Shown here in pieces: positions 6,161 to 64,000 of a stretch of 64,000 nt of DNA. Where the stretch lies: IMG/VR virus record IMGVR_UViG_3300045391_006216, positions 36,097 to 100,096 of that record; one strand, 5' to 3'. The DNA comes from a virus. Each line of letters begins with the position of its first letter. Within the stretch, counting starts at the first letter, position 1. The position numbers were made by a program, and so were the translations under genes. The notes under the pieces are model-generated. The model saw only the letters and a program-made list of their open reading frames with translations, was not told where the DNA came from and made no database searches.

Positions 6161-6166
6161 ACAGTG

Positions 6167-43588: not shown

Positions 43589-43631
43589 AAGTATATGTAA
43601 ACTTAGTATTGATTTTGCTAAGATAATTCTG

Positions 43632-43877
43632 TTGCAGACTGGTAATGGTATGGCAGTGTTGAAGATGGGAGCGCCCAGGACTATCAAGCCAGAGCGCGTT
43701 AAAGAATTAATAAAAGAAGCAGAAGCCCAAAAGCGAGATTGGTCTTATCCAGAACTCGCTAGGATTCTTTCCGAGGAAACGGGCAAGGAAATTAAGCCCG
43801 ACGCAGTCAGTAAATGCGCCAGATTTAACGGGATAGTTTTACCAAAATTGTCTGGGCGCAAACCTCCTAAAAGTTGA
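43632..43877 (+). CDS. small HTH protein
   Basis: GAPRTI...WSYPELARIL. Confidence 0.45.
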   Translation: MQTGNGMAVLKMGAPRTIKPERVKELIKEAEAQKRDWSYPELARILSEETGKEIKPDAVSKCARFNGIVLPKLSGRKPPKS

Positions 43878-43971
43878 TCCGCGATCCGATCCGCTGATCC
43901 GATAAAATCTCAAATTCTGGGCATTTTGGCGCGTGCGCGGATCTAAGGCAGTTAAAATTAATATTGTAATA

Positions 43972-44006
43972 AAAAATACCTCAGTGCTAGCCACTGGGGT
44001 ATTTTT
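43972..44006. terminator. bidirectional intrinsic terminator
   Basis: AAAAATACCTCAGTG / CACTGGGGTATTTTT. Confidence 0.65.
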
Positions 44007-44143
44007 GTGTATCTATATATATGCAATTTATAATTGTAAACTTTTGTAAACTTATGCTTGATTCTTAGATAAAACTGCTAAGTTAGTAATGTGAAATAAA
44101 TAAATTTGAGGTGAATAAAAAAGTAGAAATTAAATAGTATTAA

Positions 44144-44686
44144 TTGCTTGCATAAGTACGCTCGCAAGCAACATTTAGTCGTATTGGTTGAAGTAGCCAA
44201 GTGAGTTTCATTCCTTGGTAAAAGTGGCAACCAAAAATACAACCACAGCACACAGTAATGTGAATACAGCCTATCTCACTACACTACATACTGCGTAGTA
44301 AGTCAATGCGATCGCTAACCATACAAGGTTAGTTGTGACAGATCGTGCTGCCTTAAGACGGGTAAAAGTAGCGGTGGTCAGATGACCTATGCTTTACGGT
44401 AAGCATAACCATGCCATAGCTATATGCTATAAGTATTTAGGCGTTGCACTTAGAACTACTGACGACAAAGTTTATATACTTTGTAGGGTTGTAAGGTAGG
44501 TAGGGTTGAGTAGTTTTGAGTTTACCGTATCCACCAATAAATCAGCTTTGCTATTCCTTTTATTGGGGTATTAAGTTAGCGGCTTAATACCCCAATCTTC
44601 ATATCAGAAAGTTACACCTATGAACGCCATAGTCTGTAGCTTCACTGCTACGAAACAAAGACTACACAATAAAAGGATAGCACGTT
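44144..44686 (+). ncRNA. candidate large structured ncRNA / 5' leader
   Basis: No ORF of 60 aa or more; at least 9 stems including G-U pairs; the last stem pairs over the RBS of ORF 44687. Confidence 0.5.
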
Positions 44687-45508
44687 ATGGCAAGCTTACT
44701 CATCACAAAAGCCGATGATAAAAACAATACTATTGTCACCATCAATGGTAAGGGTGTATTTTATCAGGAATTGAGATTAGGCGATCGCCCAATGTCAGCA
44801 CGGGTACGCCTTGGAAAACTCGTTGTAGTCGATGACGAGATCGTTGTTGAATTCGATGCTTGGTGCGAGTATGACGCGCTTTTAGCCGAACGCAACACTT
44901 TAGAAAAGACTCGCAACGCCGCTAAAGACGTTATCAAGTCTCTAGAAGGAGATGCAGTTAGTCGCAAGCAGACCGAGATCGAACAGCTAACAGGTGCGAT
45001 CGCACGACTAGAAAAGCGTATCAACGAACACCCTATTAGACAACTAACTGTGCTGAATGCAAAGGTAATGTCAGCAGTTGATAAGATGCTGGATAAAGTA
45101 CGGCATCGCCATAAAAGCATCGAAACTACTGATAAAACAGTACAATTTACACATCACCCCAGCAAAGAATATTTCTTAGAGAAACAGGCTACCGAACTGT
45201 TGACTCGACACAATGAAAAGCTAGAGTCTAGGGGAATTGATGAGGGCTATCTGGATTTTGATGCATCAATGGAAATTGTTACAAAACGCTTTGCGAAAGT
45301 AGAGAAAAAAGCGCCTACGCCTAAGCCTGACGTTGCTTTGACTAAGGTGTTAGTTGATGACTTGGAATCCTCAATTGACAAAGCAGGGCATCTGAAAAGA
45401 CTTGATAGCAACCAAGTTAACGCTTTAGCTAAACACTATCAAGTTAGTGGTTCAAAAGCTGCTAAAATTGCAGCGATCGCAAAATTGTTCGTACCAGCTA
45501 CGGTTTAA
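44687..45508 (+). CDS. hypothetical protein, first gene after the structured leader
   Basis: 273-aa ORF with AAGGA RBS; coiled coil and K/A-rich C-terminus. Confidence 0.65.
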   Translation: MASLLITKADDKNNTIVTINGKGVFYQELRLGDRPMSARVRLGKLVVVDDEIVVEFDAWCEYDALLAERNTLEKTRNAAKDVIKSLEGDAVSRKQTEIEQLTGAIARLEKRINEHPIRQLTVLNAKVMSAVDKMLDKVRHRHKSIETTDKTVQFTHHPSKEYFLEKQATELLTRHNEKLESRGIDEGYLDFDASMEIVTKRFAKVEKKAPTPKPDVALTKVLVDDLESSIDKAGHLKRLDSNQVNALAKHYQVSGSKAAKIAAIAKLFVPATV

Positions 45509-45562
45509 TGTCCATCCTCTGCATCCTGGGGTGGGGACACCCCAGTTACTAAATATTCAACC

Positions 45563-46150
45563 ATGCAAAATATTACAGCTTTGAAAGCTGCTGACGGTAA
45601 GATTCAGCAGCGCGTTACCGTGCGCCATACCCCAGGTATGAATGCAGATATGTCAATCGATGCAAGGCAGGCAATTACGCCCAAAAAGCAGCACGTTAAG
45701 GACGTGAAAACGTCCAAGAGTACTGCTAATGGGCAATACTCCAAGGAAGCATCAACCTTTACCCGGTACAGGGTAGTGTTTTATAAATACCTGCCTAACC
45801 AGGTATTTCGTAGAGATTGCAAGACGGGTTTAGAAGTTCCAATCTTAGAGAAAATTGAGGGTGAGTGGTTCCCTTGTGAAGGTGTCACACTTACCCAGAA
45901 TGAGATTAATCAAATGCGCCCGTTTACTGGGGCGGCGGGGCTTGACGTTGACGGGACTATTGCCCGTAAGCGTCCCCTACCAAGTGCATCCAAGGGCACA
46001 GCTAACTATGGGAGTAGTTATACGTATAGATGCCGTCAAGATAACGATCCGATGGCAAATAGACGACAACATCGTAAGGATAAAAAGCAGGCTTCAAAGA
46101 TGCGATCGCTGATTGCATCTGTACAGATTGAGAATGTCAAGCGTAAGTAA
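45563..46150 (+). CDS. basic hypothetical protein
   Basis: 195-aa ORF. Confidence 0.55.
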   Translation: MQNITALKAADGKIQQRVTVRHTPGMNADMSIDARQAITPKKQHVKDVKTSKSTANGQYSKEASTFTRYRVVFYKYLPNQVFRRDCKTGLEVPILEKIEGEWFPCEGVTLTQNEINQMRPFTGAAGLDVDGTIARKRPLPSASKGTANYGSSYTYRCRQDNDPMANRRQHRKDKKQASKMRSLIASVQIENVKRK

Positions 46151-46151
46151 T

Positions 46152-46298
46152 CATGTCTGCATTCCCCTTCAAAATTTCATGCGATCGCCAAAACAATATG
46201 ATGCGATCGCCCTTGACTATCGCCAAATGGCAGCAAGCTTAGACTTGTTGCCAAATCAAGTACAAGCAATAACTTGGCTCGTTTGGAGGCAAAGATAA
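46152..46298 (+). pseudogene. C-terminal fragment of a phage 'QAITW..WR' family protein
   Basis: Y.....A..L.L.P.QVQAITW..WR motif with no N-terminal part. Confidence 0.4.
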
Positions 46299-46857
46299 TG
46301 TCTAGAAAATTTCTCTCAATCTCTGATTCGCAGGGTGCATACTGCGATATTTGTCGCGGTAAGGGATATGGGGCGCAAACCGCTAACTACTGCGTTAAGT
46401 ATGAAACGGATACAGCAGATCCCCCGTTTCACATCCGACATGGTAGCTGGTGTAGTGCTTGTGCTGCTGATGCGCTCGCACTTTTAGGTGGAACGGATAA
46501 AGATTTTCGCTTTGGAAGAGGGGGTTTCCAAGGCAATTCGTATTTTTGAGTCCTTTTTTGGATTTTCATGCTGTTGCCGATGGGCTTTCTGTTCCAATGA
46601 ATATAATATAGGGTGTGTATTTAGAAACAATTTAGGAACAACAGGAACAAGCATTGAGCAACAATAACAATCTTCGACCCCGCGAACCTTTTCGCGGACA
46701 AACAAAAAAGCGGCGCACCGTCGCCCTTACAGATGATGCCTGGACTGCATGGGGGGAAATAGCAGGCATTTTAAGCTGCTCCAAACAAGAGGCAATGGAG
46801 CGTATTGCTCGCAAAGAATTATCTAGCGAGGAATACAAAAAAATTTCCTCTTATCTA

Positions 46858-46887
46858 TTGACATCATCAATATAGGTAGTCTATATT
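46858..46887 (+). promoter_or_regulatory. sigma70-type promoter
   Basis: TTGACA-N18-TATATT, with an AAGGAG RBS upstream of ORF 46915. Confidence 0.55.
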
Positions 46888-46914
46888 GAAAACGTAAAGA
46901 AAAAGGAGACCGCA

Positions 46915-47358
46915 ATGATTACTCTAAGCCAACCAGTGAAAATTTCAAGATTCAATCCAGGCTCAATCTTCTTTTCGATTTTCGGAGGAAGCAATGGGCG
47001 AGCCGATGCCACATATGGTGACTACATATGTCGGGCAAAACGCGAACCAGATTGGATTTTGAAAAATAAATGCAAGATGCTAGGTCTACATCCTGAAAAG
47101 GATGTAGAAATAGTTGAATACAATGACTACAACTATGTAGTCATAAAAAGCCCGGAGGCATTGTTCAGGAAGCATCCTGAATTTCAGAAATGGTATGAGA
47201 GTTTGAGAAGATTCCCCAATGGGGGTTTGGGGTATGATTATGCCTCCTTCGATTTTGTCTCTATGCGAGACAAGGTAGGGGAACAAGGCGACGCAAAACA
47301 TTTAGCGAAATTTTTAATCCCTACTTGGCTTTTGTCAATCAATGTTGTCAAGTTCTAA
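46915..47358 (+). CDS. hypothetical protein
   Basis: Strong RBS and promoter. Confidence 0.6.
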   Translation: MITLSQPVKISRFNPGSIFFSIFGGSNGRADATYGDYICRAKREPDWILKNKCKMLGLHPEKDVEIVEYNDYNYVVIKSPEALFRKHPEFQKWYESLRRFPNGGLGYDYASFDFVSMRDKVGEQGDAKHLAKFLIPTWLLSINVVKF

Positions 47359-47406
47359 TGCCCGTCTTGGGGAACGCCTCATTGCCCAAGACGGGCAGCG
47401 TAAAAA

Positions 47407-47802
47407 ATGCAAAAGATAGTGACAAAAGTTGAGATGAAAATGATAAAAATTCTTAGTGAATTAGCCGAACAATTCATTTCTTCATTATCAAATGAAGAAA
47501 AAAAAGACCTTGAACAGTTTCCTCAAGATTGGGATGCTCAAGGATGGAAGAGGATGTTTGCATCAAAAATAGACATTGTGAAATTGTCTATTTACGACAT
47601 TGAGGAAATCGAGAGAGATAACATGGTTCTTCCTGAAGAAATTCAGGAAGCTATCCACCACTTCAGTCAATTCAAAGAGCATGAGTTCAGTGAAGTGGAG
47701 GTTGTATTCCCCCGCAACTACAAGCCATCTGCGCCTCTTCCAGATGCAGATGAATACAGATGGATATACCCGATTCAGTATTGGGTCGCTCAATCTCAAT
47801 AA
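47407..47802 (+). CDS. hypothetical protein
   Basis: ORF track. Confidence 0.5.
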   Translation: MQKIVTKVEMKMIKILSELAEQFISSLSNEEKKDLEQFPQDWDAQGWKRMFASKIDIVKLSIYDIEEIERDNMVLPEEIQEAIHHFSQFKEHEFSEVEVVFPRNYKPSAPLPDADEYRWIYPIQYWVAQSQ

Positions 47803-48269
47803 GAAAAGAAGGAAGAAATAATTTGGAGCGATCGCAATAAGTCTGATGCTGCTTCATCAAATGAGGTGCGATCGCATTGTCAGATAAAAATCAGAGGATA
47901 AATATCATGAAAGTTGAAATGCCAAATCTATCGAGCAAGTGTCAGAGTTTAACGAATATGCCCTCTGATTGGGGGGTAGAAAAAGACAAATTCGGAAGGA
48001 TAGTTGCGGTAATTGTTCCAACTCCAGAAGGAGGATGGAATAAAGAAATAGCTATCGAGATGCAACAAAATTTACCGCCATCTGGTACATATGGCAGCTG
48101 GTATCACATAAGGAGCAGAGTTGTCCGGGCACTTTCTCAAACACGTCTGACAGGTAAGGAATACCGCGCACCACGCAAAAATACAGATCCTACTACCTCA
48201 ATCACTAGCTATAGCTATCCTGGCTCACCAGATTAATGATTTCTTGCCTAATTTACAGAGGAGAAAACG

Positions 48270-48791
48270 ATGTCACACATAAACCTAAAAGGATTTAAAA
48301 AAATTTCTTGGTACGAACACAACGCAAACACGCCTCTGCCAAGAAAATTAACCAGAAGACAGCAACGAACCATTAAACGAATAGTTGAACAGGACAAAAA
48401 AATTAAATTAGTAAAGTTTGGAGAACACCTTCCCCAAACATTAACGTGTCAGTGTTGGGATGAAAAAGGAAAAGCCTACGTTTTTTCTTGGTATCTACCA
48501 ATAAAAACTGAGAGGTATCTTGGAGATAATGACGAATACCTTGTGTACGAAGGAGACGATTGTCTTCGGTACAATATTGAAGAGTTTGAAAAGTTGTCGT
48601 GCAAGTCACCGTTCCATCCCCTAAACCCCTTCTACGAGCAAGGGTTGATATCGGGTTCTTTCTCATGGGACGAGATTGAATCCGGGGAATGTGACATGCC
48701 AGACCCCGATCCTAATTGGTCGGATGAACAAAAAGAAGTTTTTCTTGAAGGGCAACAAATTGCCTATACAAACTCTTGTCTGGATGTTTGA
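48270..48791 (+). CDS. hypothetical protein with acidic C-terminus
   Basis: GAGGAG RBS. Confidence 0.55.
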   Translation: MSHINLKGFKKISWYEHNANTPLPRKLTRRQQRTIKRIVEQDKKIKLVKFGEHLPQTLTCQCWDEKGKAYVFSWYLPIKTERYLGDNDEYLVYEGDDCLRYNIEEFEKLSCKSPFHPLNPFYEQGLISGSFSWDEIESGECDMPDPDPNWSDEQKEVFLEGQQIAYTNSCLDV

Positions 48792-48875
48792 AGCAATCGC
48801 GCTTCAACATAAATCTGGATGCAATCTCCAGGCGACCACCTTTCACGAAAATCACCTGTGATTTACTTATAAGAA

Positions 48876-49289
48876 GTGAGAATGCTAACACTAATTAATG
48901 AAAATTCAAACTTTCCTTACAACTTCATCGTTTGGTTGGCAAATCAATCCCAAAGCAAGTACATGGGATTGTTTGCTCAAACTAAAAACGCCTATGAAAA
49001 AGAGGCGATTGTGTTTCAGACAATTCGGGTGATTGCCCAAAACCACCAAAACAAATTGCCTCCGTACTCAAAATTAAATCTTCACCTTGATAGTTCGTTA
49101 ACGCAAAATCGAGAAGCCTTCAATTGGTTAGTTGAAAATAAGTATCTGTATTTGGTGGAAGCTGAATTGATTGATGTTACCCATCTGTTGTTGGCGAGGT
49201 TGATCGTCCATTTTTTACAAGATATGCCCGTCTTGCCAGTGGCAAAAGAACATTTAGCGATACACAGGCAGCAAGATCAAGATATCTAG
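48876..49289 (+). CDS. hypothetical protein
   Basis: ORF track. Confidence 0.45.
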   Translation: MRMLTLINENSNFPYNFIVWLANQSQSKYMGLFAQTKNAYEKEAIVFQTIRVIAQNHQNKLPPYSKLNLHLDSSLTQNREAFNWLVENKYLYLVEAELIDVTHLLLARLIVHFLQDMPVLPVAKEHLAIHRQQDQDI

Positions 49290-49353
49290 TTGAAAACAAA
49301 TCATTTGCAAGCGATCGCACTTAAGCGATCGCTTTTTTCATGCAAGGACAATT

Positions 49354-49746
49354 ATGCCACCACTCGAAATTCAAACCTGTGACGGATATACGTTACAGCT
49401 AACCACAGACCAACAACTTTATATAGCTGGGGGATACATAATTTTTGAAGTAAATAGCTTGATTTATTCGGATAGAGAACCGGATTGGGACGGATATCTT
49501 GTTTGCCCAGACATGGGCGTAGATTTCAAGGTGACTATTCCTGCGCCAACAAGCGAAACTGAATTCTTAGAGAAAAGAATACCAGGACAATTTAGTGCCA
49601 GTGACCGATGGATATATTTCTTGAGTGAAGACCACACTTGTTATGAAGGCGATACTGATTTTACTGTCCAAGAAATCAAAAATGCGCACGCTACAAACGT
49701 CCTGCCTGATGGACGCACTTTTGAAGTTCTAACTTGGGTGGTGTAA
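49354..49746 (+). CDS. acidic hypothetical protein
   Basis: AAGGA RBS. Confidence 0.5.
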   Translation: MPPLEIQTCDGYTLQLTTDQQLYIAGGYIIFEVNSLIYSDREPDWDGYLVCPDMGVDFKVTIPAPTSETEFLEKRIPGQFSASDRWIYFLSEDHTCYEGDTDFTVQEIKNAHATNVLPDGRTFEVLTWVV

Positions 49747-50255
49747 TGAATAATTCAAGAGAATTTCTTGACCCAAAAAACTGGGGTACACCGCGCTGGA
49801 AAACAGCGATTAGAAGACCAAAACTATCTTTACCAATGCGAAATGCTTTAGATTCTGGCAAGCTTCCTACTGGTGATTGGCTTGATATTGGGTGCGGTCA
49901 TGGCGAAGATGTGGAACGATTACCAACATCCTACAACACTGTTGGTTTTGACCCATATTACAGACCCAATTTTGAGTTGTTAGATAGCACTTATCCGATA
50001 ACTAGCTTGCTTTATGTTCTGAATGTGATTGAGTGCGATGAAGACCGCGATCGCACTTTACAATTTGCATTTTCACTATGTATAAAAGCACTGGTAATAG
50101 CAGTGCGTACCGATAAAAAAGAATCTGGAATTACCAGTATTGGTACGTTCCAAAAGTATTATACACGCAAAGAATTTATCAACTACGCACAATCTCAATG
50201 TTGTGGTGGGAGAGTGATTGATATTGGCTCAGGTCATGTAATTGTTTTGAGGTGA
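49746..50255 (+). CDS. SAM-dependent methyltransferase resembling DNA phosphorothioation-associated methyltransferases
   Basis: KTAIRR..LS.P, LDIGCGHGED, GFDPYYRP, YVLNVIE, GTFQKYY. Confidence 0.7.
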   Translation: MNNSREFLDPKNWGTPRWKTAIRRPKLSLPMRNALDSGKLPTGDWLDIGCGHGEDVERLPTSYNTVGFDPYYRPNFELLDSTYPITSLLYVLNVIECDEDRDRTLQFAFSLCIKALVIAVRTDKKESGITSIGTFQKYYTRKEFINYAQSQCCGGRVIDIGSGHVIVLR

Positions 50256-50604
50256 ATATGGAAGTCATTAAGCAAAGAAGTTGTAAAAGTTGGTGCTGTA
50301 ATTGGTTTTTCAAAACCTACTTAATTAGGTTTACGATTCAGTATCACCATATCAGATTTTTAACTTTTGAGTGGAGATTGCCAGGGAAAACAATCCTTCA
50401 TTACCTGCATTGGTGCGGATATGAAAAGTTAGACTTTAGCCCTAATTTTAGAGATAAAGAGAGCTACGAATTTTCTATATACTTGCTTTTTTTTGAATTG
50501 CTACTCACAACCGAAGGTAAGTATTTCAGAAAGCACATCTAATTTTTTGTACTTGGATATGCTGACCGAAATCAATTGCTATAAATTTTTGAGTCATTCA
50601 ACAG

Positions 50605-50630
50605 GACGGGTTAACGCCCGTCTTTTTTTT
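50605..50630 (+). terminator. intrinsic terminator
   Basis: GACGGG-loop-CCCGTC + T8. Confidence 0.6.
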
Positions 50631-50672
50631 GTGACCAAAAGTTGTCACGATGTCGTTTATTAGGTACTAGCT

Positions 50673-51212
50673 ATGACCGCTATCAAAAGTTCTGACCCTA
50701 ATGCGATCGCACAATTACAAGCTAAGTTAGAGCAATTGCAAAAGTTTCAACAACAAATGAAGGATACTAATAAAATTATCCGCAAGAATTTGACTGATGA
50801 CCAAAAAGTTGAGGAGATAGTCAAGCTTGGAATATCCGAAAACGTAGCTCGTCAAATCTTAGTTCCAGACTTTGCCAAGCGTGTTGGGTTCCCTGACTTT
50901 AGACTGCAAAATAATAATGCCGAAATTCGCCGCATCAAAGGGCGGATTGAGGAGTTACAGCAACAGGAACAATTCTTAGAGAAAACTGACACTGAAGAGG
51001 AGTACCCAGAATTGGGACTTACTCTAGTTCGCAACAAAGACATCGATAGGCTACAGTTGGTGTTCAATGGGAAACCGTCAGAACAAGTGCGAACTATTCT
51101 TAAGCAAAACGGATTTAAGTGGAGTCCTACCAACGAAGCTTGGCAATGGTTACTCAATAACAATGCCGAAAGTGCAGCAAAGTGCGTGATTCAAAAGCTA
51201 CAACAACAGTGA
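50673..51212 (+). CDS. DUF3560-like / polyvalent-protein-type domain protein
   Basis: IKSSDPNAI..L..KL, LQNNNAEIRRIK.RI, RLQLVF.GKP....R..LK..GFKWSP...AWQ. Confidence 0.65.
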   Translation: MTAIKSSDPNAIAQLQAKLEQLQKFQQQMKDTNKIIRKNLTDDQKVEEIVKLGISENVARQILVPDFAKRVGFPDFRLQNNNAEIRRIKGRIEELQQQEQFLEKTDTEEEYPELGLTLVRNKDIDRLQLVFNGKPSEQVRTILKQNGFKWSPTNEAWQWLLNNNAESAAKCVIQKLQQQ

Positions 51213-51855
51213 TTAGTTAAAAGCGATGACTGCCTCAGTGTTTCTTGCCCAAAACCATACAATGAGTAAATCAACATCAGTAATTATAGAGGTGTAATCA
51301 TGCCAACAGCAGACGAATTAAAAGCAATTCAGTTAGTGCAGTCTGAACATCCCGACAAATACATTCATAGTTTTGGATTATCTGGCGATCGCTATGATAT
51401 CGCTGTTTATGAATCGGAAAAAGACTTTAATTTAGATGCCGAAGATAACAGCAATCAGCGAATGATAGCTAGACGCTCAATCGTTAAAAGTGACATCTAG
51501 ATTCTTTATTCAGTAATTTATTCTCCCCATGCAATTGCGTGGGGATTTTTTTTGGAGGAAACATGAAAATATTAGCAACGATTAAAATCAACGGACAACC
51601 CAAACAAGTTATCGGCAGCACTGAATATCTAACTAATGCGAAAGTCCTGTCAGAAGTAGTTGCTTATTGCTGGTTTGCAGGTCGGGTGACTGCATACAGA
51701 AATCAGCAATATGAAATAGATAATGGTGAAATCACCATTAAAGTTGAGAATTTTCAAGAAATAAGTCAACAAGAATATCTAAAACTAAAAACCAAAACTA
51801 TAATGTCTTTAATTGACAAAAAGCACATTGAAAACTTCTGGAACTTCAGAGCATC

Positions 51856-53484
51856 TTGGCAATGAAATCTGAAACATTCCAAATGTACGACTCTGTTAAA
51901 GTTATTGACCCTGATTCTAGATATTTTGGCATCACTGGGCAAGTAACTGATAACTTAAATTACTCAATCAGAGTAATGTTTCGTACTGGCATAGCCCCAA
52001 AAAATAATCGCGGGAGGGATTTAAGTGTTGGATTTTCTCCTTCAAAACTAGAGCTTATTAACCGCCCAACTGAAATAACTCCTGCACCTTCACTTATAGA
52101 TAAGAAAATCCATAAAGAAGGTACTTATCGGGAGTTTTGGGTTTCCGTACACGAGCGCCCAATAGAAGTTGGAATTAAGGTTTTGGCTATTTGCGACTTG
52201 AATCGAGATATTCGCTTTGAAGAGTTGCATCAAAACCTTACTCCCAGTGAAGTGTGGGATAAAACTATCCAAAAAATAGATGTATTGATTCAAGAATTGG
52301 GCTTAGATATTCCCGCACATCAAAAAAGATCCTCTAAATCAATAGGAGTTGTTACTGCTACCCAACTAGCAAAGGAGTTAATGATGGAGTCAAGCGTTAC
52401 ACTATCAGTTTTACGCCGTGAGCGTAGTGACGGGATTGTAGTTTACCAAGCATCGGTTCCTTGGCAATTTGTTGCTCAGTTCTTTGTGTATGAAGACCCA
52501 AATCTACCTGCGAACCAAAGAGCTAACCGCGTCCTCAATCCTTCCCACGCTAAGAAAATAAAAAATTATATTCTTAGCAATCCTAATTACTATTTTCCTC
52601 CGATGATTGCATCCATAGAAATAGATGAATCTGCCACCTTTACACCTTTGAAAAAGGACGCGTCCAATGGCATTTTAGAAGTGCCATTGACTGTAGTATT
52701 TCGCATGATTGACGGGCAGCATCGCACTTGGGCGATTCGTCAAATCATGCAAAGCAATGATGCAAGTAAGTACAGATCCGAATTTATTTCAGTGGATTTG
52801 ATTGTGAATGCTTCTTTAGAGTTGCGGAAAAAGATATTTAGGGAGGTGAATCTAGAGGCTAAAACAGTCAGTAAGAATTTAGGTACTTACTATAACGACT
52901 CCCCAATTTCACAGTTTACAAATAGCGTACTCTCAAGCATTCCTTTATTTGTAGAGTTTGCAGAAACAGAGAAAAATTCGCTAGGGAAAAAGTCTGATAA
53001 ACTTCTTATTTACAAGCATCTGTATGATGCCACGGTACTCGTGAAACCTGGGAGAGCAAGAGAGTCTGACTTTAAATATTGCCAAGTATTTTGGCAAACG
53101 TTAGTTGATGTTATTCCTGCTTGGACGAAAGTACTAGATGGTAAGTTGACTCCTCAAGAAGTCAGGGATACAACTGTTGCAGCTCATGGAGTGACAATTC
53201 ATGCATTAGGGGAATTAGGGAAGTATTTAGCAGCGAATCAAGAACCATATAATGTTGAAAAATTACTAAAGAAACTCAGTGATATTGATTGGTTAAAAAC
53301 TAATCCTGATTGGACTAACAGAGTAGTTGATGCTAATGGAGGAATGCTATCAAATAGACACAATGTCAAGTTGATGCTAAATTATTTCAAGATAAAAATC
53401 GGAGTTCCTTCTAAAGTCTTTAGTCAATCCGATAAAGACTTGGAGAAATTACACATCGGTTCTTCAAATTTATTTGCAAAATAG
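51856..53484 (+). CDS. DGQHR-domain (DndB-like) protein with N-terminal SH3/KOW-like domain
   Basis: RANR.LN..H...I..YI, YFPPM.AS, IDGQHR, F..VN. Confidence 0.8.
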   Translation: MAMKSETFQMYDSVKVIDPDSRYFGITGQVTDNLNYSIRVMFRTGIAPKNNRGRDLSVGFSPSKLELINRPTEITPAPSLIDKKIHKEGTYREFWVSVHERPIEVGIKVLAICDLNRDIRFEELHQNLTPSEVWDKTIQKIDVLIQELGLDIPAHQKRSSKSIGVVTATQLAKELMMESSVTLSVLRRERSDGIVVYQASVPWQFVAQFFVYEDPNLPANQRANRVLNPSHAKKIKNYILSNPNYYFPPMIASIEIDESATFTPLKKDASNGILEVPLTVVFRMIDGQHRTWAIRQIMQSNDASKYRSEFISVDLIVNASLELRKKIFREVNLEAKTVSKNLGTYYNDSPISQFTNSVLSSIPLFVEFAETEKNSLGKKSDKLLIYKHLYDATVLVKPGRARESDFKYCQVFWQTLVDVIPAWTKVLDGKLTPQEVRDTTVAAHGVTIHALGELGKYLAANQEPYNVEKLLKKLSDIDWLKTNPDWTNRVVDANGGMLSNRHNVKLMLNYFKIKIGVPSKVFSQSDKDLEKLHIGSSNLFAK

Positions 53485-53496
53485 GAGAAAACAAAA

Positions 53497-53787
53497 ATGA
53501 AATTGTTTGTTAAAGCTAGCTTGAGTCTTAATCATTTTGTTGATACCCATGAAGGATTTGATGTCACACTCTACGGAATTGCCGTAGTTAGCGAAAACGT
53601 CCAGGAAACTACTGAATTATTAGCAGATTTAGTAGTCGAACAGTTATGTCCACCTCAATTAGATTTGCTTCCCAAAGTGGAGGAATTCAAGATTATCACT
53701 GACGAGCAGTTTGTTTTACTCCAGGAATTATTACTTGTGCCTGTATTCAGCATTAATGGCGATGACATTCGAGAATCAGATGAGTAA
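53497..53787 (+). CDS. acidic hypothetical protein
   Basis: AGGAG RBS. Confidence 0.5.
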   Translation: MKLFVKASLSLNHFVDTHEGFDVTLYGIAVVSENVQETTELLADLVVEQLCPPQLDLLPKVEEFKIITDEQFVLLQELLLVPVFSINGDDIRESDE

Positions 53788-55828
53788 ACAACAACATCTT
53801 GAAAATGCGATCGCAGCAATAAAAATTCTTAAGTCAAGCCCCAAAGCCCTTTCGGTATCCGAAAGGGCTATTTTGATGGGTTTTTGTGGTGGCGGCGTAC
53901 TCAAAGAGTGCGGGATTTTCTTAGAGAAAGATAAGCCCGAATGGCTGAAGCAAGGCAAGATGCAGTTGCTAGAACTGCTAAGTAAGCAGGAGTGGACATC
54001 GCTGCAAAATGCTGGGTTACAGAACGCTCATTACACTTCGCCTGGGGTGCGACGGGTAATGTGGGATGTTCTCACCCCACTGCTGAAACCAGGGGATAAA
54101 GTTCTCGACCCCGGTTGTGGCGTTGCTGGGTTTGCTGTGGAGATGCCCAGTTTTTTCAAATATGTAGGGGTTGAAAAAGATGGGTTATCTGCTGCGATCG
54201 CTAAATTAGCCCATCCCACATTGCAGATATACCACAAGGACTTTTTGAAGTGGTCGTACCCCGAACAATTCAACTTGGTAATCGGTAATGTTCTATTTGT
54301 TAACGGCGTTGAGTCGATGAAGTTGGAAGGGAAGTGGTTAAGAATTGGACTTCATGCCCAATTTTTTGCCACTGCTGTTTCTCACCTACTCCCTAGTGGT
54401 TTGCTGGCACTGCTTACCAGTACCAATACTTTAGATTCTCGCACTCCCGACTACCTCTGGTTTCGTGAATGGATGCACAAAAAGTGTGAATTCTTGGGAG
54501 CGGTGCGATTACCTTCAGGGTCGCACATTGGGGAAACCGAAGTTACCACCGACTTAATTTTGTTGCGAAGGAGGGAGTCGGATTGCACGGGACTTGCTCT
54601 TCACTGGATAGGAGTTGGGCAAACCGACATCGTTGGTTACGACGGCAGACCAGCTTATTTGAGTAACTGGTATCTAGAAAATCCTAATTACTTAATTGGT
54701 GAACCTGTATGCAGTAAGTTACGGGGGAAAAACGGCAACCCAACAACAACTTTCGCTCTTAAAGCATATCCAAACCAAGATGTGCCAGGAGTTCTGAAAA
54801 CATTACTTAGTTCATTAGTTAATCAACAAGTCGAGGCATCAATCATGAGTGCTACTTTAATTCCCGCCGACAAATTCCACTCTAATTCCGTGTTTGCTTT
54901 CATTCTTAGAGAGAACCCCAAAAAAAGAGGGATTGAAATTCACTTACCAACTGATTGCGATACTAGTAGCCAAAAAGCAGTATCTTTCATTGCCAAAATA
55001 TTGGGCGCTGGTTTTCAAAAATCCAATTCCAACCCCAAAATGTACTACGCTCCCTTCTCTGAAGAGTTGATGCAACGTGCTAGGGGATGGGTTGAATCTT
55101 GTAAGACGACTTTTAAAGCCTATGAACTTAGCCCGGAAGAACCTGTAGAAAGTACTCCTACTCGCCGACGCTATTCTAAGAAAGAACCAGCAGCGACAAT
55201 TACACCTACACCTAACAAACTACTAGAAGCGATCGCACAATTAATAGATGCCAAACTAGATCCGCTAGCTGAGAGTATCGGTACGAGCATCATTGAGCAA
55301 CTCAAGTCAGAGCATAAAAATAGTCTTGCTGATGCCAAAGCCCTCAAGGATGAACTCGAAAAAGTCAAAGCCGAAAGAGATGGACTCGCTAAATCTCTTG
55401 AGCAAATTAGAAGTGAGATGTTGGATTTTCAAAAATCCTACACGGATTTAGAAAAAAAATCAGTGCAGCAACAAGAATCCATTAAATATTTAGAGCAAGA
55501 GCGCGAACGCCAGCGAGAAACAATCGAAGCTTTGCAGCACGACGATACTCAGCAACAACAAACAATTCAAGTTCTACAACAAAGGTGCGCTCGCTTGCAC
55601 AATCAACTACAAGAATTGGGATTAGATGATGAGGATGGTGAAATAGAAAGCCCCATATTTCTTGATGAATCTAATGAAGAAAAACTCCCAGTATTTGCTG
55701 ATGAATCTCAAGAAAATCAAGAGTCCCCAGTCTTTTCTGATGAATCTGATGAAACATCAAATACTCCATCATTTGAAGAAGAGAAAGAAGCAGGATTTGA
55801 TTTAACTAAATTAGATTCGGGAAAGTAA
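53780..55828 (+). CDS. DarB-like N6 DNA methyltransferase domain fused to a coiled-coil/acidic region
   Basis: L.GF.GGG, NAHYTS, VLDPGCG, IGNVLF (NxPF variant), GAVRLP, TEVTTDLI. Confidence 0.7.
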   Translation: MSKQQHLENAIAAIKILKSSPKALSVSERAILMGFCGGGVLKECGIFLEKDKPEWLKQGKMQLLELLSKQEWTSLQNAGLQNAHYTSPGVRRVMWDVLTPLLKPGDKVLDPGCGVAGFAVEMPSFFKYVGVEKDGLSAAIAKLAHPTLQIYHKDFLKWSYPEQFNLVIGNVLFVNGVESMKLEGKWLRIGLHAQFFATAVSHLLPSGLLALLTSTNTLDSRTPDYLWFREWMHKKCEFLGAVRLPSGSHIGETEVTTDLILLRRRESDCTGLALHWIGVGQTDIVGYDGRPAYLSNWYLENPNYLIGEPVCSKLRGKNGNPTTTFALKAYPNQDVPGVLKTLLSSLVNQQVEASIMSATLIPADKFHSNSVFAFILRENPKKRGIEIHLPTDCDTSSQKAVSFIAKILGAGFQKSNSNPKMYYAPFSEELMQRARGWVESCKTTFKAYELSPEEPVESTPTRRRYSKKEPAATITPTPNKLLEAIAQLIDAKLDPLAESIGTSIIEQLKSEHKNSLADAKALKDELEKVKAERDGLAKSLEQIRSEMLDFQKSYTDLEKKSVQQQESIKYLEQERERQRETIEALQHDDTQQQQTIQVLQQRCARLHNQLQELGLDDEDGEIESPIFLDESNEEKLPVFADESQENQESPVFSDESDETSNTPSFEEEKEAGFDLTKLDSGK

Positions 55829-55854
55829 AAGGGGATTTTTCAAGCATTTTACAG

Positions 55855-56634
55855 TTGTTTGAGAAAGCCTCTGTTAGCTTGAAAAATCCCAAGATTAAGC
55901 TATTAAAAATACAACTCTATCGTAGCAAATCTGGCAGATATCCTGGTGCAATTTACATTTCTCCTACCGACAAACAAGGTTGGTACGGCAGGATTGAAAC
56001 TGATGGGAATTTAACTCTAAATCAATCAAATATCCTCCCAGGACTAGAAAATGATTTGCGCTCTTTTGCAGGTAATCCAGTTTCCTATGTGGCGAGTTTT
56101 GGTAAGTTAACTGGTAACTGCTGTTTTTGCTCCTTGCCGCTTACTGACGAACGTTCTGTAGAAGCTGGTTACGGCGCTATTTGTGCCCAAAAGTTTGGAT
56201 TGCCTTATCCAGAAAAAGGAAGGAGGAAGAAAAAGGAGGAAGAAAAATTTCAACCAAATCAACAACTGGTTGATGAAATTACTCAAGAATTAGCCAACTT
56301 TTATGGCGGTAGCGAACAGTGTTATCGCCATTATTCTCGAGCATTTAACTACTCTGAAGGTATCAAGTATTTGGCTACTAAAGCTAACTGTTATTGGCTT
56401 TTGGATGCGATCGCATCTTGGCAGTTAAGTCCAAAAGTCAAAAAATCCCGAATGAATGAAGGTTTCCAGATTTGGGAGCTAACCAGAACCACTGGAAACC
56501 AAGCAATTTTAACAGGGGCTTGGGATACTGACAAAATTGTTGTTACTCAAGAGATTGAGTATACTGATTTCCCTTTGCCCAAAATAAAACTGTGGCTAAC
56601 TGATGAGTTTTTATGTTTACCAAGCGAGAAATGA
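55855..56634 (+). CDS. DUF6011-like Zn finger + DUF6876-like protein
   Basis: CCFC..LTDERS...GYGAICA; LANFYG.E..YRH...EG..YLA....YWLLDAIAS...QEIEYTDFP...LPSE. Confidence 0.65.
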   Translation: MFEKASVSLKNPKIKLLKIQLYRSKSGRYPGAIYISPTDKQGWYGRIETDGNLTLNQSNILPGLENDLRSFAGNPVSYVASFGKLTGNCCFCSLPLTDERSVEAGYGAICAQKFGLPYPEKGRRKKKEEEKFQPNQQLVDEITQELANFYGGSEQCYRHYSRAFNYSEGIKYLATKANCYWLLDAIASWQLSPKVKKSRMNEGFQIWELTRTTGNQAILTGAWDTDKIVVTQEIEYTDFPLPKIKLWLTDEFLCLPSEK

Positions 56635-56844
56635 TATGGAGAAATACATTATGTTGGGTAGTATTCAATTTGAATGCTTGATTAGTGTTGGCGAAGGTAC
56701 AACAATTTATGATAAAGCCAATAGTTTGTTAAATGATTTAGTTGATGCTAAATCGGCTCGTTTGTACCTAAGTGGTGAAGATGGAGAAACTAGAATAGTT
56801 AATTTGAAAATTGTTGAGGTTGAGTCTCAAGATATCGGTCAAGC

Positions 56845-57837
56845 ATGATACCAGATTTAATTAACTACGATTATATAATTGTAGCTTTGAGCGGTGGTAA
56901 GGATAGCGTTGCTTGTCTGCTTTATCTACTAGAACTTGGCGTACCCAAGTCAATTATTGAATGCTGGCATCATCTAGTAGATGGTAGAGAAAATCCCCTT
57001 TTGTTTGATTGGGAGTGTACTGAAGATTACATTAGAGTTCTTTGTAATGCACTCCAAATCAAACTTTTCTATAGCTGGAGAAGTGGGGGATTAGAACAAG
57101 AAATGTTGCGTTATGATTCTCCTACTGCCGCTACTTTTTATGAAACTCCAGAAGGTTTAAAAACTTCTGGAGGTAGTAGCAACAGTTTGGGTACGAGATT
57201 GCGTTATCCTCAACTTTCGGCAGGGATGACCACAAGATGGTGTAGTAGCTATGGCAAGATTATGGTTGCAGATGCAGCAATTAATAATCAAACTAGATTC
57301 AAAGGGAAGCGCACTTTAGTAATAACTGGAGAACGCAGATTAGAATCAAAATCTAGAAGCAAGTATTTAGAGTTTCAATCGCATAGAACCCATTGTCTAT
57401 CGAGACACGTTGACCATTGGCGTCCCGTGATTGATTGGACTAGCGAAGATACATTTATTATTGCTCAAAAATACTCGCTTTTGTGCCATCCCTGTTATTA
57501 CCTGGGATTTGGTAGAGCTTCTTGTCAAATGTGCATTTTTGCATCAGATGACCAATTGGCATCGATATACAAAATTGCACCACATAAAGTAAATCAAATT
57601 GCCGAATACGAGCGCCAGTTTAACGATTACTGGCAGCGAATAGAAGGCAAGAAATACACAATTCATCGCAATTTTTCAGTGATGGAGCGCGTAGCTAGGG
57701 GTAACCCTTTTGATATGGATGATGAAGATATCAAATTGGCACTATCCCCCGTTTATTACAAATCGGTAATCGTTCCCACTAACGAGTGGAAGATGCCAAA
57801 GGGCGCATTTAGTAAAGATACAGCAGGCCCGACTTGA
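56845..57837 (+). CDS. PAPS-reductase-family (PP-loop) protein
   Basis: SGGKDS, RWCS...K, GERRLES..R, WRPVIDW, HPCY..G..R.SC..C. Confidence 0.85.
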   Translation: MIPDLINYDYIIVALSGGKDSVACLLYLLELGVPKSIIECWHHLVDGRENPLLFDWECTEDYIRVLCNALQIKLFYSWRSGGLEQEMLRYDSPTAATFYETPEGLKTSGGSSNSLGTRLRYPQLSAGMTTRWCSSYGKIMVADAAINNQTRFKGKRTLVITGERRLESKSRSKYLEFQSHRTHCLSRHVDHWRPVIDWTSEDTFIIAQKYSLLCHPCYYLGFGRASCQMCIFASDDQLASIYKIAPHKVNQIAEYERQFNDYWQRIEGKKYTIHRNFSVMERVARGNPFDMDDEDIKLALSPVYYKSVIVPTNEWKMPKGAFSKDTAGPT

Positions 57838-57851
57838 AAGGAGTCAAAACC

Positions 57852-58316
57852 ATGAATTACAATCCCGATAACTTCAACGTTGAACTAAAAGCCATCAAAA
57901 TTTCTGGTGGTGAAGAAACTACTAGATTTGAAGCCAAGCTTTATATCAATAAAAAATTTGCGGCTACGGTGTCTAATGAAGGTACTGGAGGATGCCACTA
58001 TTGGTATTGGCAAAATAGAGAATTAGAGGATTTATTTAATCAACACATCAAATATTTAGACCAACAAGGTAAGTTTGAGTTTGACTTTGAACAGTGCGAC
58101 GAACTAATCGACCAAATGATTGCTGACCATGAAGAAGAAAAACGTTTGAAAAAGTGGTGCAAGACTAAAACTGTTTGCACAACATACGACCTTGCTAAAG
58201 GTGAATATAGAGTTTTTGATATACCTTATTCATCAGAGCTAAAAACACGTTTAAGAGCTAAATTTGGCAATAATTTGAAAGAAATTGTCAACGAACGTTT
58301 TCTCAATAAAAAATAA
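57852..58316 (+). CDS. hypothetical protein (EET..F.A.L...V.N.G.GG motif)
   Basis: Conserved-looking mobile-element motif; GGAG RBS. Confidence 0.55.
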   Translation: MNYNPDNFNVELKAIKISGGEETTRFEAKLYINKKFAATVSNEGTGGCHYWYWQNRELEDLFNQHIKYLDQQGKFEFDFEQCDELIDQMIADHEEEKRLKKWCKTKTVCTTYDLAKGEYRVFDIPYSSELKTRLRAKFGNNLKEIVNERFLNKK

Positions 58317-58431
58317 TCTGCGCCCCTCAGCACAGATTAATTCATATTAATTGGCAAGTCTATATCTTATCACAATCACAGGAAGACAGAAGTGAATTCA
58401 CTTCTGCCTTCTGTCCTCTGCCTTCATAGTT

Positions 58432-58824
58432 ATGCAACTCAAAGCTTCTTACATCCAATCCAAACTAATTAGAATTTCTTTAGTGGGGTTTAGTCCTAGC
58501 GACCCCACTTGTCAGACTCTTCAGAAAATGCTGGAGTCGAAAAAGTTTAGACAGATGCAATCTGACCAATGGGAGCGGCAAGAATTCGCAGATGTCAAAA
58601 CCGAATCTTTTGAATTTTGGTTCACTCAAACTAAACAACTTTGTACCAAATTCAAAAGTAGCGAACCAGTACCTATTCAAGAAGAACCAAAACCTACAGA
58701 CTATCCCGAAATTAAACAACTCCTAGAAAAAATTCGCTATCTAGAGGAGGAGATAGCACAACTAAAAAAGTTCGATACCTCCGCCAACAAGAGATTACAG
58801 CAATTGAGAAAGAAAAAGGCGTAA
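58432..58824 (+). CDS. hypothetical protein
   Basis: ORF track. Confidence 0.5.
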   Translation: MQLKASYIQSKLIRISLVGFSPSDPTCQTLQKMLESKKFRQMQSDQWERQEFADVKTESFEFWFTQTKQLCTKFKSSEPVPIQEEPKPTDYPEIKQLLEKIRYLEEEIAQLKKFDTSANKRLQQLRKKKA

Positions 58825-58901
58825 TTTATCAAGGCATTGTTCCTGATTTTACGCCCATTGTTGTTTTTGAATCCTCTCCAATTATATTAGGTGACGACGA
58901 T

Positions 58902-59615
58902 TTGAAGTGGACTGAGAGATTTCGCGGCGGAGTATTTTGCTTTTTTAATGGGCAACTGGGCATTTCGTTTAAAAATGCCCATCAAGGTTTGATTTGGGAA
59001 ATAGACAGGAGGTATTGCAATGCACCTATAAAGGTACATAAAAAAATCAAAGATATCACTTGTATTTCCCCAATTCTGCCGGGGACATTTCAGCCGATTG
59101 AAGCACCATCCGAACAATTAGAAGTGATGCGAACTCTAATTGATGGAGCTTCAATTGTTGAAGAACTTCTAGAGGCAGAAGCAACCCAGCAAGACGATGA
59201 AGAGTGCGATGCCTACGGCGGGCAATGCCAACGCTTGCGGGAAAAATTAAACCAATTCTACGATAACTTTGTTGCAGAATTTGGGTTGTTGAGTAACTGT
59301 AAGAGTTACTACGATGGCATCTGGAATGATGTCAGGTTAGAGATTTACCTCACCCAGCTAACAGATAGTTCAGGTAATAAATCTGATATTTTCTACAAAC
59401 GAATCAACTACCCCCCCAAATCTCTGCATGGGCAGCAGTTTTTTGAAGAAGATTTAGCCACCAGAGTCACTAATGCTTTTAGCTGGTGTATGGGTTGGTT
59501 TGGGGAAGTAAGATTGGATGAAATTGCTGACAAGTCTGGGCTAGATTGCGACCTTACTTTAGAGATTTTACTCAAGTTAAAGTTAGTTTACAGGGAATGG
59601 ATTAATGGAGATTAA
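58902..59615 (+). CDS. DarB-like central domain (stand-alone)
   Basis: LREKLNQFYDNFVAEFGLL...KSDIFYKR..., typical of the linker in DarB-type methylase-helicases. Confidence 0.55.
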   Translation: MKWTERFRGGVFCFFNGQLGISFKNAHQGLIWEIDRRYCNAPIKVHKKIKDITCISPILPGTFQPIEAPSEQLEVMRTLIDGASIVEELLEAEATQQDDEECDAYGGQCQRLREKLNQFYDNFVAEFGLLSNCKSYYDGIWNDVRLEIYLTQLTDSSGNKSDIFYKRINYPPKSLHGQQFFEEDLATRVTNAFSWCMGWFGEVRLDEIADKSGLDCDLTLEILLKLKLVYREWINGD

Positions 59616-59628
59616 AGCTATATATTAC

Positions 59629-59862
59629 GGTACTTTGATTACTCGTGAAGATGTGGCGGCGTTGAGTCCTTATATGACGAGTCATATCAAGCGTTTTGGC
59701 GATTACTTGATTGATATGGAGACTGTGCCGAATTTGTTGGATGATGACAAGTTCTTAGTTTTGGCTTGAGAATTTTGAAGGTAGTTCTGGTAGGGGTTGT
59801 AGAGTTTTTGTTTACATAACTTTACAACGTGTCCCATTTTGCACGTATCCCGGTTGTACCCC
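59629..59862 (+). mobile_element. Tn3-family remnant (transposase C-terminus + terminal inverted repeat)
   Basis: Frame reads EDVAALSPYMTSHIKRFGDY...* (stop at 59769); terminus ...CGGTTGTACCCC at 59862 (GGGG end on the reverse strand). Confidence 0.7.
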
Positions 59863-59896
59863 TTTATTAAATGCAGTCGCCAAAGCTAATTATTGT

Positions 59897-60355
59897 ATGC
59901 CCTTCATCCGTCGCGGATATACCGTAAAACAGATGATGCTGGGCAGAGCATCCAACATATTATCCGCCAAAATTCAACTTGAGTATTTGGTTGGGGCAGT
60001 TGACAGGCTAGCGAGTCTAGAAGATGGCGACAGGGCTTACAAAAATGCCTTTCGCCTTGGGTGCGCTAGTCGCATCGCTACCCGCATCCTAGAAAACATG
60101 GAAAAGCAAAAGTCTCAAGGGATCGCCGCTTCTGGTGATGGCAATCCGATATCTGCAATCATTGTGCGATCGCTCCACGAAAAATTAGAAGCCGAAGTAG
60201 ATGCCTACGCCAAAGCAAACCTAAACATCAAGAACCGAACTAGTAGACCGAGTTGCAGTTCATATAGTGGTTATTTTTCTGGTATGGCAGCAGGCGACGG
60301 AGTTTCACTCAACAAACAGGTAAGGGGAGAAAGTGGGCGGTATCTACCACAATAA
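59897..60355 (+). pseudogene. C-terminal part of a DUF2786-associated-type protein, 5'-truncated by the Tn3 remnant
   Basis: YKNAFRLG...RI, G..AGD.VSLNKQV ending. Confidence 0.5.
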
Positions 60356-60374
60356 AAATTTTTCTCTTAGGGTG

Positions 60375-60403
60375 TTGCCACCACAGAAAAAGTGTGCTTT
60401 AAT
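60375..60403 (+). promoter_or_regulatory. sigma70-type promoter
   Basis: TTGCCA-N17-TTTAAT with extended -10 TG. Confidence 0.5.
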
Positions 60404-60454
60404 AATTTCATGAACAGAAAACGGGTCTTCGCCGCACGGAAGTAAAAGGTAATT

Positions 60455-60934
60455 ATGCAAATTCAAGAATTAATCGCTATCCATCTCAATGTTTCGCCTT
60501 CCAAAATTGTCAAAATCGTTGAATTATACAAAGTTTGGTGTGTAGTTGTAGAAGGTTGTCGCGGTCGCTTTGTATCCAAACTACAAGTACTAGGTGAAGA
60601 AATCAAAACATCGATAAAAGTTCAGGTCAAAACTGGGTCTGAATGGCATACAACTGAGCGCAGAGGCGCAATGGTAAAGGTCAACGGAAAACCTATTTAT
60701 CAAGTATTAAATCCAGTTTCTCAAGAATGGGAATTGGTGGGTAATAAAGGCAAACATGGTAAATGGTGCGTTGCCGAATACGAACTTCCCGTAGGAGCAA
60801 AAATCGAATTCTCTGCTACTGCTAATGGTAGGGATGCAATAACTCATAGTTTTGTTGTTGGGGAAGTTAGTTCTGTAGATGTAGATGGCTACGGTTATGG
60901 AAGTGATATCTGTGGTTGGATAGTTTCTATATAG
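60455..60934 (+). CDS. hypothetical protein
   Basis: VWCVVVEG.R.RFVSK motif. Confidence 0.55.
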   Translation: MQIQELIAIHLNVSPSKIVKIVELYKVWCVVVEGCRGRFVSKLQVLGEEIKTSIKVQVKTGSEWHTTERRGAMVKVNGKPIYQVLNPVSQEWELVGNKGKHGKWCVAEYELPVGAKIEFSATANGRDAITHSFVVGEVSSVDVDGYGYGSDICGWIVSI

Positions 60935-61224
60935 TTTCATGGCGGGATGCGTCGCCTTAAATCCGCATGAGTTAGTTAACAATTAACAGGAGAAACGTAT
61001 GCTCGATCCCAATGAAGATGTCAATGGTGGCGATTGTCAAGACTGCGGTGGCACGGGAGCTACCTATGAAAAAGACGAAGAAACTGGCGATTATGAAGTG
61101 ACGGGTGATTGCTCTACTTGTGGTGGCACAGGGGACGAAAGCTAGATATCTAAAATCAATTTTTGGCAGAGTATCAATCTCTGCCAAAACCAAAAAAGTG
61201 TCTTCAACTAAAGGAAGTAAAATC

Positions 61225-61818: not shown

Positions 61819-61920
61819 TTTCTCGTCCTGAGCATGACTTTAAAAGGCTTGTTGGTTCAATAATGTTAACGCCAAGTGATTAACTGCGAATTAATCACTT
61901 GGTTTACTTAACCATAAAAA

Positions 61921-62334: not shown

Positions 62335-62335
62335 T

Positions 62336-63767: not shown

Positions 63768-63789
63768 GGTCAATAAGAGGATACATAGC

Positions 63790-63930: not shown

Positions 63931-64000
63931 GGCGTTGCATAATAGAGGGATGAATTGAGGTCATCTACTGTGCAATGTCCATACTGCAACTCTACTGAAA
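63931..64000 (+). mobile_element. left end of an IS1-family element (partial)
   Basis: GGCGTTGC terminus followed by an InsA-like Zn-ribbon start VQCPYCNSTE. Confidence 0.65.

Follow-up and report, generated by a model that had tools for sequence, protein, structure and literature searches.

The window analysed here is a stretch of 64,000 nucleotides corresponding to positions 36097-100096 of a 100,096-bp IMG/VR virus record, the record being ~83% complete. An operon encoding an FtsK/SpoIIIE-like ATPase, a PD-(D/E)XK nuclease, RusA and a small HTH protein ends at an intrinsic terminator-like hairpin on the + strand (43973-44006; A-tract, 9-bp stem and T-tract), which the promoter/terminator scan places on the − strand and which is kept, with changes in the stem, in a relative from Nostoc linckia z4. 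Between the stop codon of the HTH gene and this terminator (43880-43945) lie three GATCCG repeats (CGCGATCCGATCCGCTGATCCGAT) and an inverted GCGCGGATC, nearly identical in the same relative, that could be a protein-binding site. The first-pass annotation had described the interval that follows as free of ORFs, and indeed no conserved ORF is present from the + strand terminator to the ATG at 44687; two small ATG ORFs (44389-44499 and 44620-44718) were rejected as conserved because the start codon is lost in the closest relative. HIP1 octamers (GCGATCGC) occur inside the region and its closest relatives are found in Nostoc genomes, which together point to a filamentous cyanobacterium as the host. 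IMG/VR classifies the record as viral, and we refer to it as a Nostoc phage-like element.

Immediately 3′ of this region, on the + strand, is ORF1 (44687-45508; 273 aa, unknown family), which always lies just downstream of the RNA described below. ORF1 has 10 relatives (clusters) in 5.8e9 proteins and 14 among 1.84e9 representatives, with no Pfam match above the curated cut-off and none in PHROG, PDB or ESM-atlas searches. It is followed by ORF2 (45563-46150, + strand; 195 aa, unknown), for which Pfam, PDB and ESM-atlas likewise gave no family match. ORF2 is the second gene of a module shared by both groups of relatives: its homologues directly follow ORF1 in all five related loci (L002, L005, L006, L007 and L008), and the two are the sole genes conserved 3′ of the RNA in both groups. 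In the window the co-oriented gene run continues up to the window end and includes methyltransferase-like, DndB-like, DUF6876/DUF6011 and PAPS-reductase-like proteins, and no tRNA genes lie near the RNA. Strong co-oriented intrinsic terminator-like hairpins, with 9-11-bp stems followed by T-runs, are located on the + strand at 49309-34, 50603-24, 51524-45 and 53845-69. Three of the four sit in inter-ORF gaps, while that at 53845-69 lies within the listed frame 53711-55828 and would count as intergenic only with a start of this ORF further downstream. Overall, 44500-64000 holds 31 terminator-like sites vs 15.5±4.5 in shuffles, about twice as many. The intergenic hairpin at 49309-49334 is made of two HIP1 palindromes (AAGCGATCGC...GCGATCGCTT) followed by a T-run.

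The homologous region was found upstream of the same ORF in five related loci. Three form group A, namely L002 (= L004; Nostoc linckia z4), L005 (Nostoc sp. CHAB 5836) and the metagenome contig L006, with ORF1 69-79% identical; ORF1 identity drops to 47-49% in group B, made up of the contigs L007 and L008. A long non-coding region lies directly 5′ of ORF1 in six of six loci, the window included, and the RNA is present in every one of the six loci having the upstream flank, as one copy per element. The RNA set comprises these six known loci, with five distinct core sequences, and stops short of the more distant ORF1 relatives P0007-P0020, which are on short Logan/JGI contigs. Across 389 Nostocaceae species genomes, BLAST and the core motif pattern identified two carriers, the 17 other hits of the pattern in the same genomes being unrelated-looking by sequence; the pattern also found carriers in three IMG/VR contigs, including the window's own record. 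An extra IMG/VR pattern match (L012) sits inside a 1117-aa ORF and was set aside as chance, and a weak BLAST match in G311 (L011) was confirmed neither by nhmmer nor by the covariance model R1 introduced below. No further family members were recovered with a 24-nt motif in IMG/VR, with ORF1 profile scans of viral, genome and metagenome contigs, or in plasmid and phage GenBank collections, and four soil-metagenome runs yielded identical fragments only, with no new RNA variants. In L008, an HTH protein, an SSB and a DUF5754 protein are encoded upstream of the module on the opposite strand (66-1741), and a 625-aa PcfJ-like protein is encoded downstream (4622-6499), a gene set typical for leading regions of conjugative elements.

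A conserved fold on the sense strand

In group A, nucleotide conservation of the RNA core exceeds that of both flanking genes. The central domain is 87, 84 and 74% identical to L002, L005 and L006, respectively, and the G-domain 88, 79 and 88%, compared with 69, 68 and 69% for ORF1 DNA and 78, 58 and 55% for the upstream HTH gene. Group B retains the order of central domain, G-domain, terminator, hairpin and ORF1, and has a different and larger 5′ part with two extra hairpins. Insertions in the RNA region are tolerated at peripheral places only. Nostoc sp. CHAB 5836 (L005) carries, in the interval between the promoter-like block and the first RNA hairpin, a MITE-like insertion of ~250 nt (~2204-2450) with long terminal inverted repeats of GGAGGCAGGAGG units and a predicted fold of -131 kcal/mol. 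L006 has a 210-nt insertion in the 5′ domain (~2342-2554) and a 31-nt insertion of TAATTCG heptamer repeats in a hairpin loop of the central domain (~2675-2705).

The region had been described from the window alone as densely structured, and comparison with dinucleotide shuffles bears this out: as + strand RNA, 44144-44700 folds with z = -3.72 and 44091-44606 with z = -4.13, 0 of 100 shuffles being as good in either case. The − strand also folds well (z = -3.45 as RNA and -4.79 as DNA), so that folding of a single sequence cannot identify the strand or the molecule. Applied to 44262-44612 of the window and the three group-A relatives, RNAalifold gave 94 pairs in 13 helices, and 98.1% of the 376 cells in group A are standard pairs. 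Twelve pairs are compensatory, vs 5.0±1.4 in column shuffles (reached in 0 of 500) and 0-2 when partners are slid by 1-3 columns, for a structure derived from the same alignment that was scored. Two covariance models, R1 for the central core (44283-44372) and R2 for the G-domain, were built with group A only as input. R1 matches group B at full length and in the syntenic place, both in L008 (2513-2597; 37.1 bits, E 2.4e-6) and in L007 (2504-2593; 31.6 bits, E 5.6e-5), and R2 matches L008 at 2660-2724 (23.3 bits, E 6e-4). The six-locus core alignment, itself fitted to the model, has 95.5% of its cells paired and compensatory changes in 12 of its 32 pairs, a count that 0 of 500 shuffles reach. 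The G·U to A·C cell counts are 41:2 in group A and 29:0 in the six-locus core, and on the opposite strand 11% of the pairs would become C·A mismatches. It follows that the conserved fold belongs to the sense (+) strand, in keeping with a transcript.

The whole window has no Rfam match at gathering thresholds. With Rfam 15 at E<=10 over 43900-44760 the highest-scoring hit fell on the upstream terminator hairpin and reached 19.7 bits where the threshold is 47.3, and the unmatched families include ROOL, GOLLD, EAR, riboswitches, group I/II introns, 6S and tmRNA. The first-pass proposal of an undescribed large ncRNA or cis-regulatory element is thus supported, given the lack of an Rfam match, the significant covariation, the sense-strand G·U asymmetry and the conservation above that of the flanking genes: the predicted RNA is ~500 nt long, multi-domain and in no described family.

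Most of the stems initially picked out survive the comparison, and three do not. The 5′ domain (44144-44262, + strand) is variable between groups and holds P1 (44144-51/44164-71), a stem already noted in the window whose pairing is maintained in relatives where G-C has become A-U and where U-A has passed via U-G to C-G, and P2, a hairpin at 44196-44219 with an invariant loop. The CCAAG/CTTGG hairpin is likewise invariant, and an outer stem of the form GTATTGG.../...AAATAC finds partial support only. The central multi-helix domain (44265-44448, + strand), defined by RNAalifold and pair counts, is closed by 44265-73/44438-48. Its core (44283-44372), delineated by R1 and pair counts, is composed of a CUAC/GUAG pairing, a long interrupted helix, a HIP1-containing stem and a fully covarying hairpin. 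The CTAACC/GGTTAG, TATGCTT/AAGCATA and ATAGC/GCTAT stems are all supported by the relatives. The stem proposed between CAGCAC (44246-51) and GTGCTG (44345-50) is not: its 5′ arm is not conserved, and GTGCTG has 44305-11 as its partner in every relative.

The G-domain (44449-44520, + strand), defined by RNAalifold, pair counts and R2, consists of a 12-bp G·U-rich stem (44449-60/44509-20) around a 7-bp hairpin (44465-84, paired as 44465-71/44478-84) and a 24-nt loop, and the relatives support this nested arrangement as first drawn. Within the loop (44485-44508) the GGG, GG, GG and GGG runs are invariant in six of six loci, with spacers that vary in length and sequence (6, 1 or 2 nt; UA; 1-2 nt). 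The pattern fits a two-tier G-quadruplex, an idea that stays speculative because ViennaRNA with its G-quadruplex option predicts one in L005 and L008 only.

The 14-bp stem at 44562-44596 (+ strand; loop TTAGCGG) is real, with compensatory changes in 4 of 12 pairs. It had been taken for one arm of a switch and is better read as an intrinsic terminator, hereafter t1. The window has a weak U-tract here (AATCTTCAT), but that of the relatives is clear: a stem followed by a U-tract is present in five of five, the terminator scan calls t1 in L005 (2884-2914, then ATTTTCAT), and the counterpart in L008 and L007 is an 11-bp stem followed by U8 and U7, respectively. The segment after the terminator (44606-44686, + strand) contains AGAAAGTTACAC at 44606-17, a GTAGC/GCTAC hairpin at 44636-51 and the Shine-Dalgarno (SD) sequence AAGGA at 44673-77. 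Both the AGAAAGTTACAC block and the hairpin are conserved in groups A and B, the latter as GUAGUC/GACUAC in B, so that the inner part of a stem proposed earlier stands, while its outer TAGTCT/AGACTA pairing is not conserved. TTACAC and TAGTCT are separated by 12 nt in the window but by 15 nt in L002, a difference that argues against a promoter in 44606-44686.

The promoter-like block and the proposed leader

Upstream of the first helix, a tandem direct repeat of two TTGTAAACTT units (44034-44053, + strand) is a putative operator; these are the sole two exact copies in the 64-kb window, and both are retained in all group-A relatives. A putative extended -10 element (TGCTAAGTT, 44076-44084, + strand) lies in the most conserved block, 44076-44124, followed by a conserved GAGGTGAATAAAAA and together with an invariant TGCTAAKTTAGTAATGTGAAA. 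The interval 44030-44124 is 97, 74 and 83% identical to L002, L005 and L006, vs 69, 68 and 69% for ORF1 DNA. We infer that the 44076-44124 block, which the consensus scan does not call, acts as the promoter, with the putative -10 placing the transcription start near 44091. From 43610 to 44732 the scan reported no sigma-70-like pair for the + strand; within the region it listed one pair only, on the − strand (44693-44666), with a weak 9/12 match. A search of group B for a counterpart of the promoter block gave none. The window fold also pairs the 5′ GAGGTGAATAAAAA block with 44545-60; this pairing was discarded, the partner being deleted in L002 and L006. The block also shares a direct repeat, AGTAATGTGAA, with the 5′ domain (44088-44098 and 44255-44265); the second copy is not conserved in relatives, and the repeat is therefore probably due to chance.

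The RNA is always co-oriented with, and immediately 5′ of, ORF1 and ORF2, its covarying terminator lies ~90 nt before the start codon, and no conserved promoter intervenes; on these grounds we read the region as a leader. We consider the chances about even that this leader acts in cis on elongation and so controls, through attenuation and/or processive antitermination, whether transcription enters the multi-terminator operon that follows. We propose the following sequence of events. A structured sense-strand RNA of ~500 nt would start near 44091 and carry the conserved intrinsic terminator (44562-44596), forming the leader of an ORF1-ORF2 operon that would extend for at least 20 kb. The tandem TTGTAAACTT repeat could serve as the operator for a repressor gating the promoter. 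By default, transcription from this repressor-controlled promoter would halt at the leader terminator and give a ~0.5-kb RNA. The folded leader, either alone or with ORF1/ORF2 or a host factor, would then allow RNA polymerase to pass both the leader terminator and the later terminators at 49.3, 50.6, 51.5 and 53.8 kb.

In support of elongation control, the gene run is enriched in co-oriented intrinsic terminators, and the layout resembles that of RNA-based elongation-control systems in other mobile elements, with a structured RNA close to the putative promoter, t1 after it and, further on, four more terminators in the same orientation. These internal terminators may just as well bound separate transcription units, each driven by a promoter of its own. 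Inspection by eye revealed no conserved antiterminator hairpin that competes with t1, and a classical attenuator switch is therefore not evident; the window can pair 44534-41 with 44559-66, with no conserved equivalent seen by eye in L002, L005, L006 or group B. Known protein antiterminators were also searched for: NusG/LoaP (PF02357) and Q (PF06530) are absent from the 100-kb record, itself ~83% complete, in searches to which control genomes responded. PF17362 (ConAn1) was matched by neither ORF1 nor ORF2 in Pfam scans against all families at E<=0.01, and a six-frame search of the 100-kb record with this family gave no match, a result that carries no weight because the control genomes were silent too.

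Known systems and alternative readings

To date, large leaders that act in cis as antiterminators or attenuators are documented chiefly from conjugative elements of Firmicutes and from a single lambdoid phage. We know of no such large leader in cyanobacteria or their phages, and a literature search found nothing relevant. Mobile elements of Firmicutes and coliphage HK022 do provide precedents for large RNAs of the leader or antiterminator kind, and the likeness drawn here to the canT, pLS20 and put systems is one of layout. As processive antiterminators, put, EAR and canT RNAs act in cis and let RNA polymerase pass successive terminators, heterologous ones included. One precedent of the same size is canT of Tn916, a 452-nt structured RNA that acts in cis as a processive antiterminator (PMC11658703). 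Both are promoter-proximal RNAs of ~450 nt with several predicted stem-loops, carried by mobile elements, and the passage of polymerase through downstream intrinsic terminators of a long operon, brought about in cis, is known for canT and proposed here. However, canT belongs to the conjugative transposons of Firmicutes, and it is likened to the present RNA by size and layout only. To our knowledge, there is no published covariation model of canT.

A second comparison can be made with pLS20, whose 32-kb operon opens with a 456-nt leader attenuator, followed by two genes of an antitermination system that is bipartite, with an RNA and a protein component (bioRxiv 10.1101/2025.11.24.689506; PMC8191782). 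The two systems share a long leader with an intrinsic terminator just 5′ of the first gene, two conserved first genes and a very long operon with internal terminators. In contrast to the zipper-type attenuator of pLS20, no zipper-like extended stem was found to overlap t1 here; the pLS20 antiterminator RNA conAn2, a large element downstream of conAn1, lies after gene 28 rather than in the leader; ConAn1, a processivity protein encoded at the operon start, carries the Pfam domain pXO2-34 (PF17362), for which ORF1 and ORF2 have no match; and the host here is a cyanobacterium, not a Firmicute. Antitermination by conAn2 needs both a GC-rich segment and the stem-loop SL1, to which the G-tract loop and hairpin of 44449-44520 bear a loose resemblance only. 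Phage precedents for RNA-based antitermination come from HK022 put (PMC9378689), and, as in the lambda pR′-qut-6S RNA-tR′ leader, a promoter-proximal RNA or leader is followed by a terminator ahead of a multi-terminator operon. The put RNA is a two-hairpin element of ~70 nt, whereas the RNA described here is 6-7 times larger and of another architecture, and the lambda leader requires protein Q, of which the 100-kb record yielded no homologue.

The elongation-control leader has to be weighed against readings in which the RNA works in trans or in which the element is not a leader RNA of this kind at all. A stand-alone, trans-acting large ncRNA ending at 44596 could join ORF1/ORF2 in a ribonucleoprotein (RNP), serve as a decoy or sponge, or belong with 'ornate' phage RNAs like ROOL or GOLLD, with ORF1 expressed by leaky read-through only; we regard this as rather unlikely. 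The RNA is large, with several domains, has its own terminator, is better conserved than the neighbouring genes and co-occurs strictly with the orphan ORF1/ORF2 pair, and a trans-acting RNA or RNP would likewise account for the strong conservation of unpaired nucleotides in the G-tract loop, whose G-runs do not vary in either group. ROOL and GOLLD are similarly longer than 400 nt, multi-domain, found in phage or prophage DNA and of unknown function. Nevertheless, the RNA matches no covariance model for these or any other Rfam family and has no neighbouring tRNA genes, its host is a cyanobacterium, and its position is invariably that of a leader, terminator included, with no independent ORF1 promoter evident. 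It is also single-copy in each element, and the AF2 model of ORF1 is poor (pLDDT 65), without a recognisable RNA-binding fold. Related to both readings is a more far-reaching possibility, doubtful though we think it: cyanobacterial mobile elements may here show a new class of large RNA with tertiary structure, in which the invariant, helix-clamped GGG-N(1-6)-GG-UA-GG-N(1-2)-GGG loop would fold into a two-tier G-quadruplex or comparable platform for binding RNA polymerase, a small molecule or ORF1/ORF2. Such an RNA would work either as a processive antiterminator that needs no factor and is unrelated to put, EAR and canT, or as a phage ribonucleoprotein of new function.

Control at the level of translation was suggested in the first-pass annotation, according to which a helix between 44549-65 and 44667-82 masks the ribosome-binding site (RBS) of ORF1 in competition with the 14-bp stem, as a riboswitch or thermosensor might. 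The two segments are almost perfectly complementary in the window and are paired in the minimum free energy (MFE) fold of 44144-44700. However, a 13-nt deletion removes the 5′ arm in L002 and L006, L005 can form ~5 bp only, the SD region itself is not conserved and group B has no counterpart. The switch with the 14-bp stem is thus not conserved, the masking helix would be at most a lineage-specific add-on, and we consider translational control of this type very improbable. The least probable of the readings, in our view, is a DNA-level element, be it an ssDNA promoter or priming signal (Frpo/ssi-like), as also raised initially, or an origin or packaging site with hairpins in the DNA. A structured non-coding stretch at the head of an anti-defence-like gene run does recall Frpo/ssi elements, the context is like that of conjugative leading regions (methyltransferases, DndB-like, PAPS-reductase-like and DUF6876 proteins in the window; SSB and PcfJ-like proteins in group B), and the − strand folds as DNA with z -4.8. 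The Frpo hairpin is a long, duplex-mimicking structure in the template (transferred) strand with -35/-10 hexamers in its stem (PMC11541004). By contrast, the fold conserved here is multi-branched, G·U-rich and specific to the sense strand, with 13 short helices of 4-12 bp in place of one long promoter-mimicking hairpin and no -35/-10 pair embedded in a long stem. The 11% of paired cells that are sense-strand G·U would be C·A mismatches on the template strand, where a Frpo-type hairpin must form. The element also includes a co-oriented, covarying terminator, and the record is classed as viral.

Implications for Nostoc mobile elements

Structured RNAs of more than ~400 nt with real covariation support are rare, and new ones have tended to reveal new biology. 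If the RNA indeed gates the 20-kb run of DNA-modification and anti-defence-like genes, it would be a master switch for that cargo in Nostoc mobile elements and could provide a compact, portable regulatory part for cyanobacterial genetics. A testable role would then also emerge for the orphan proteins ORF1 and ORF2, which strictly co-occur with the RNA.
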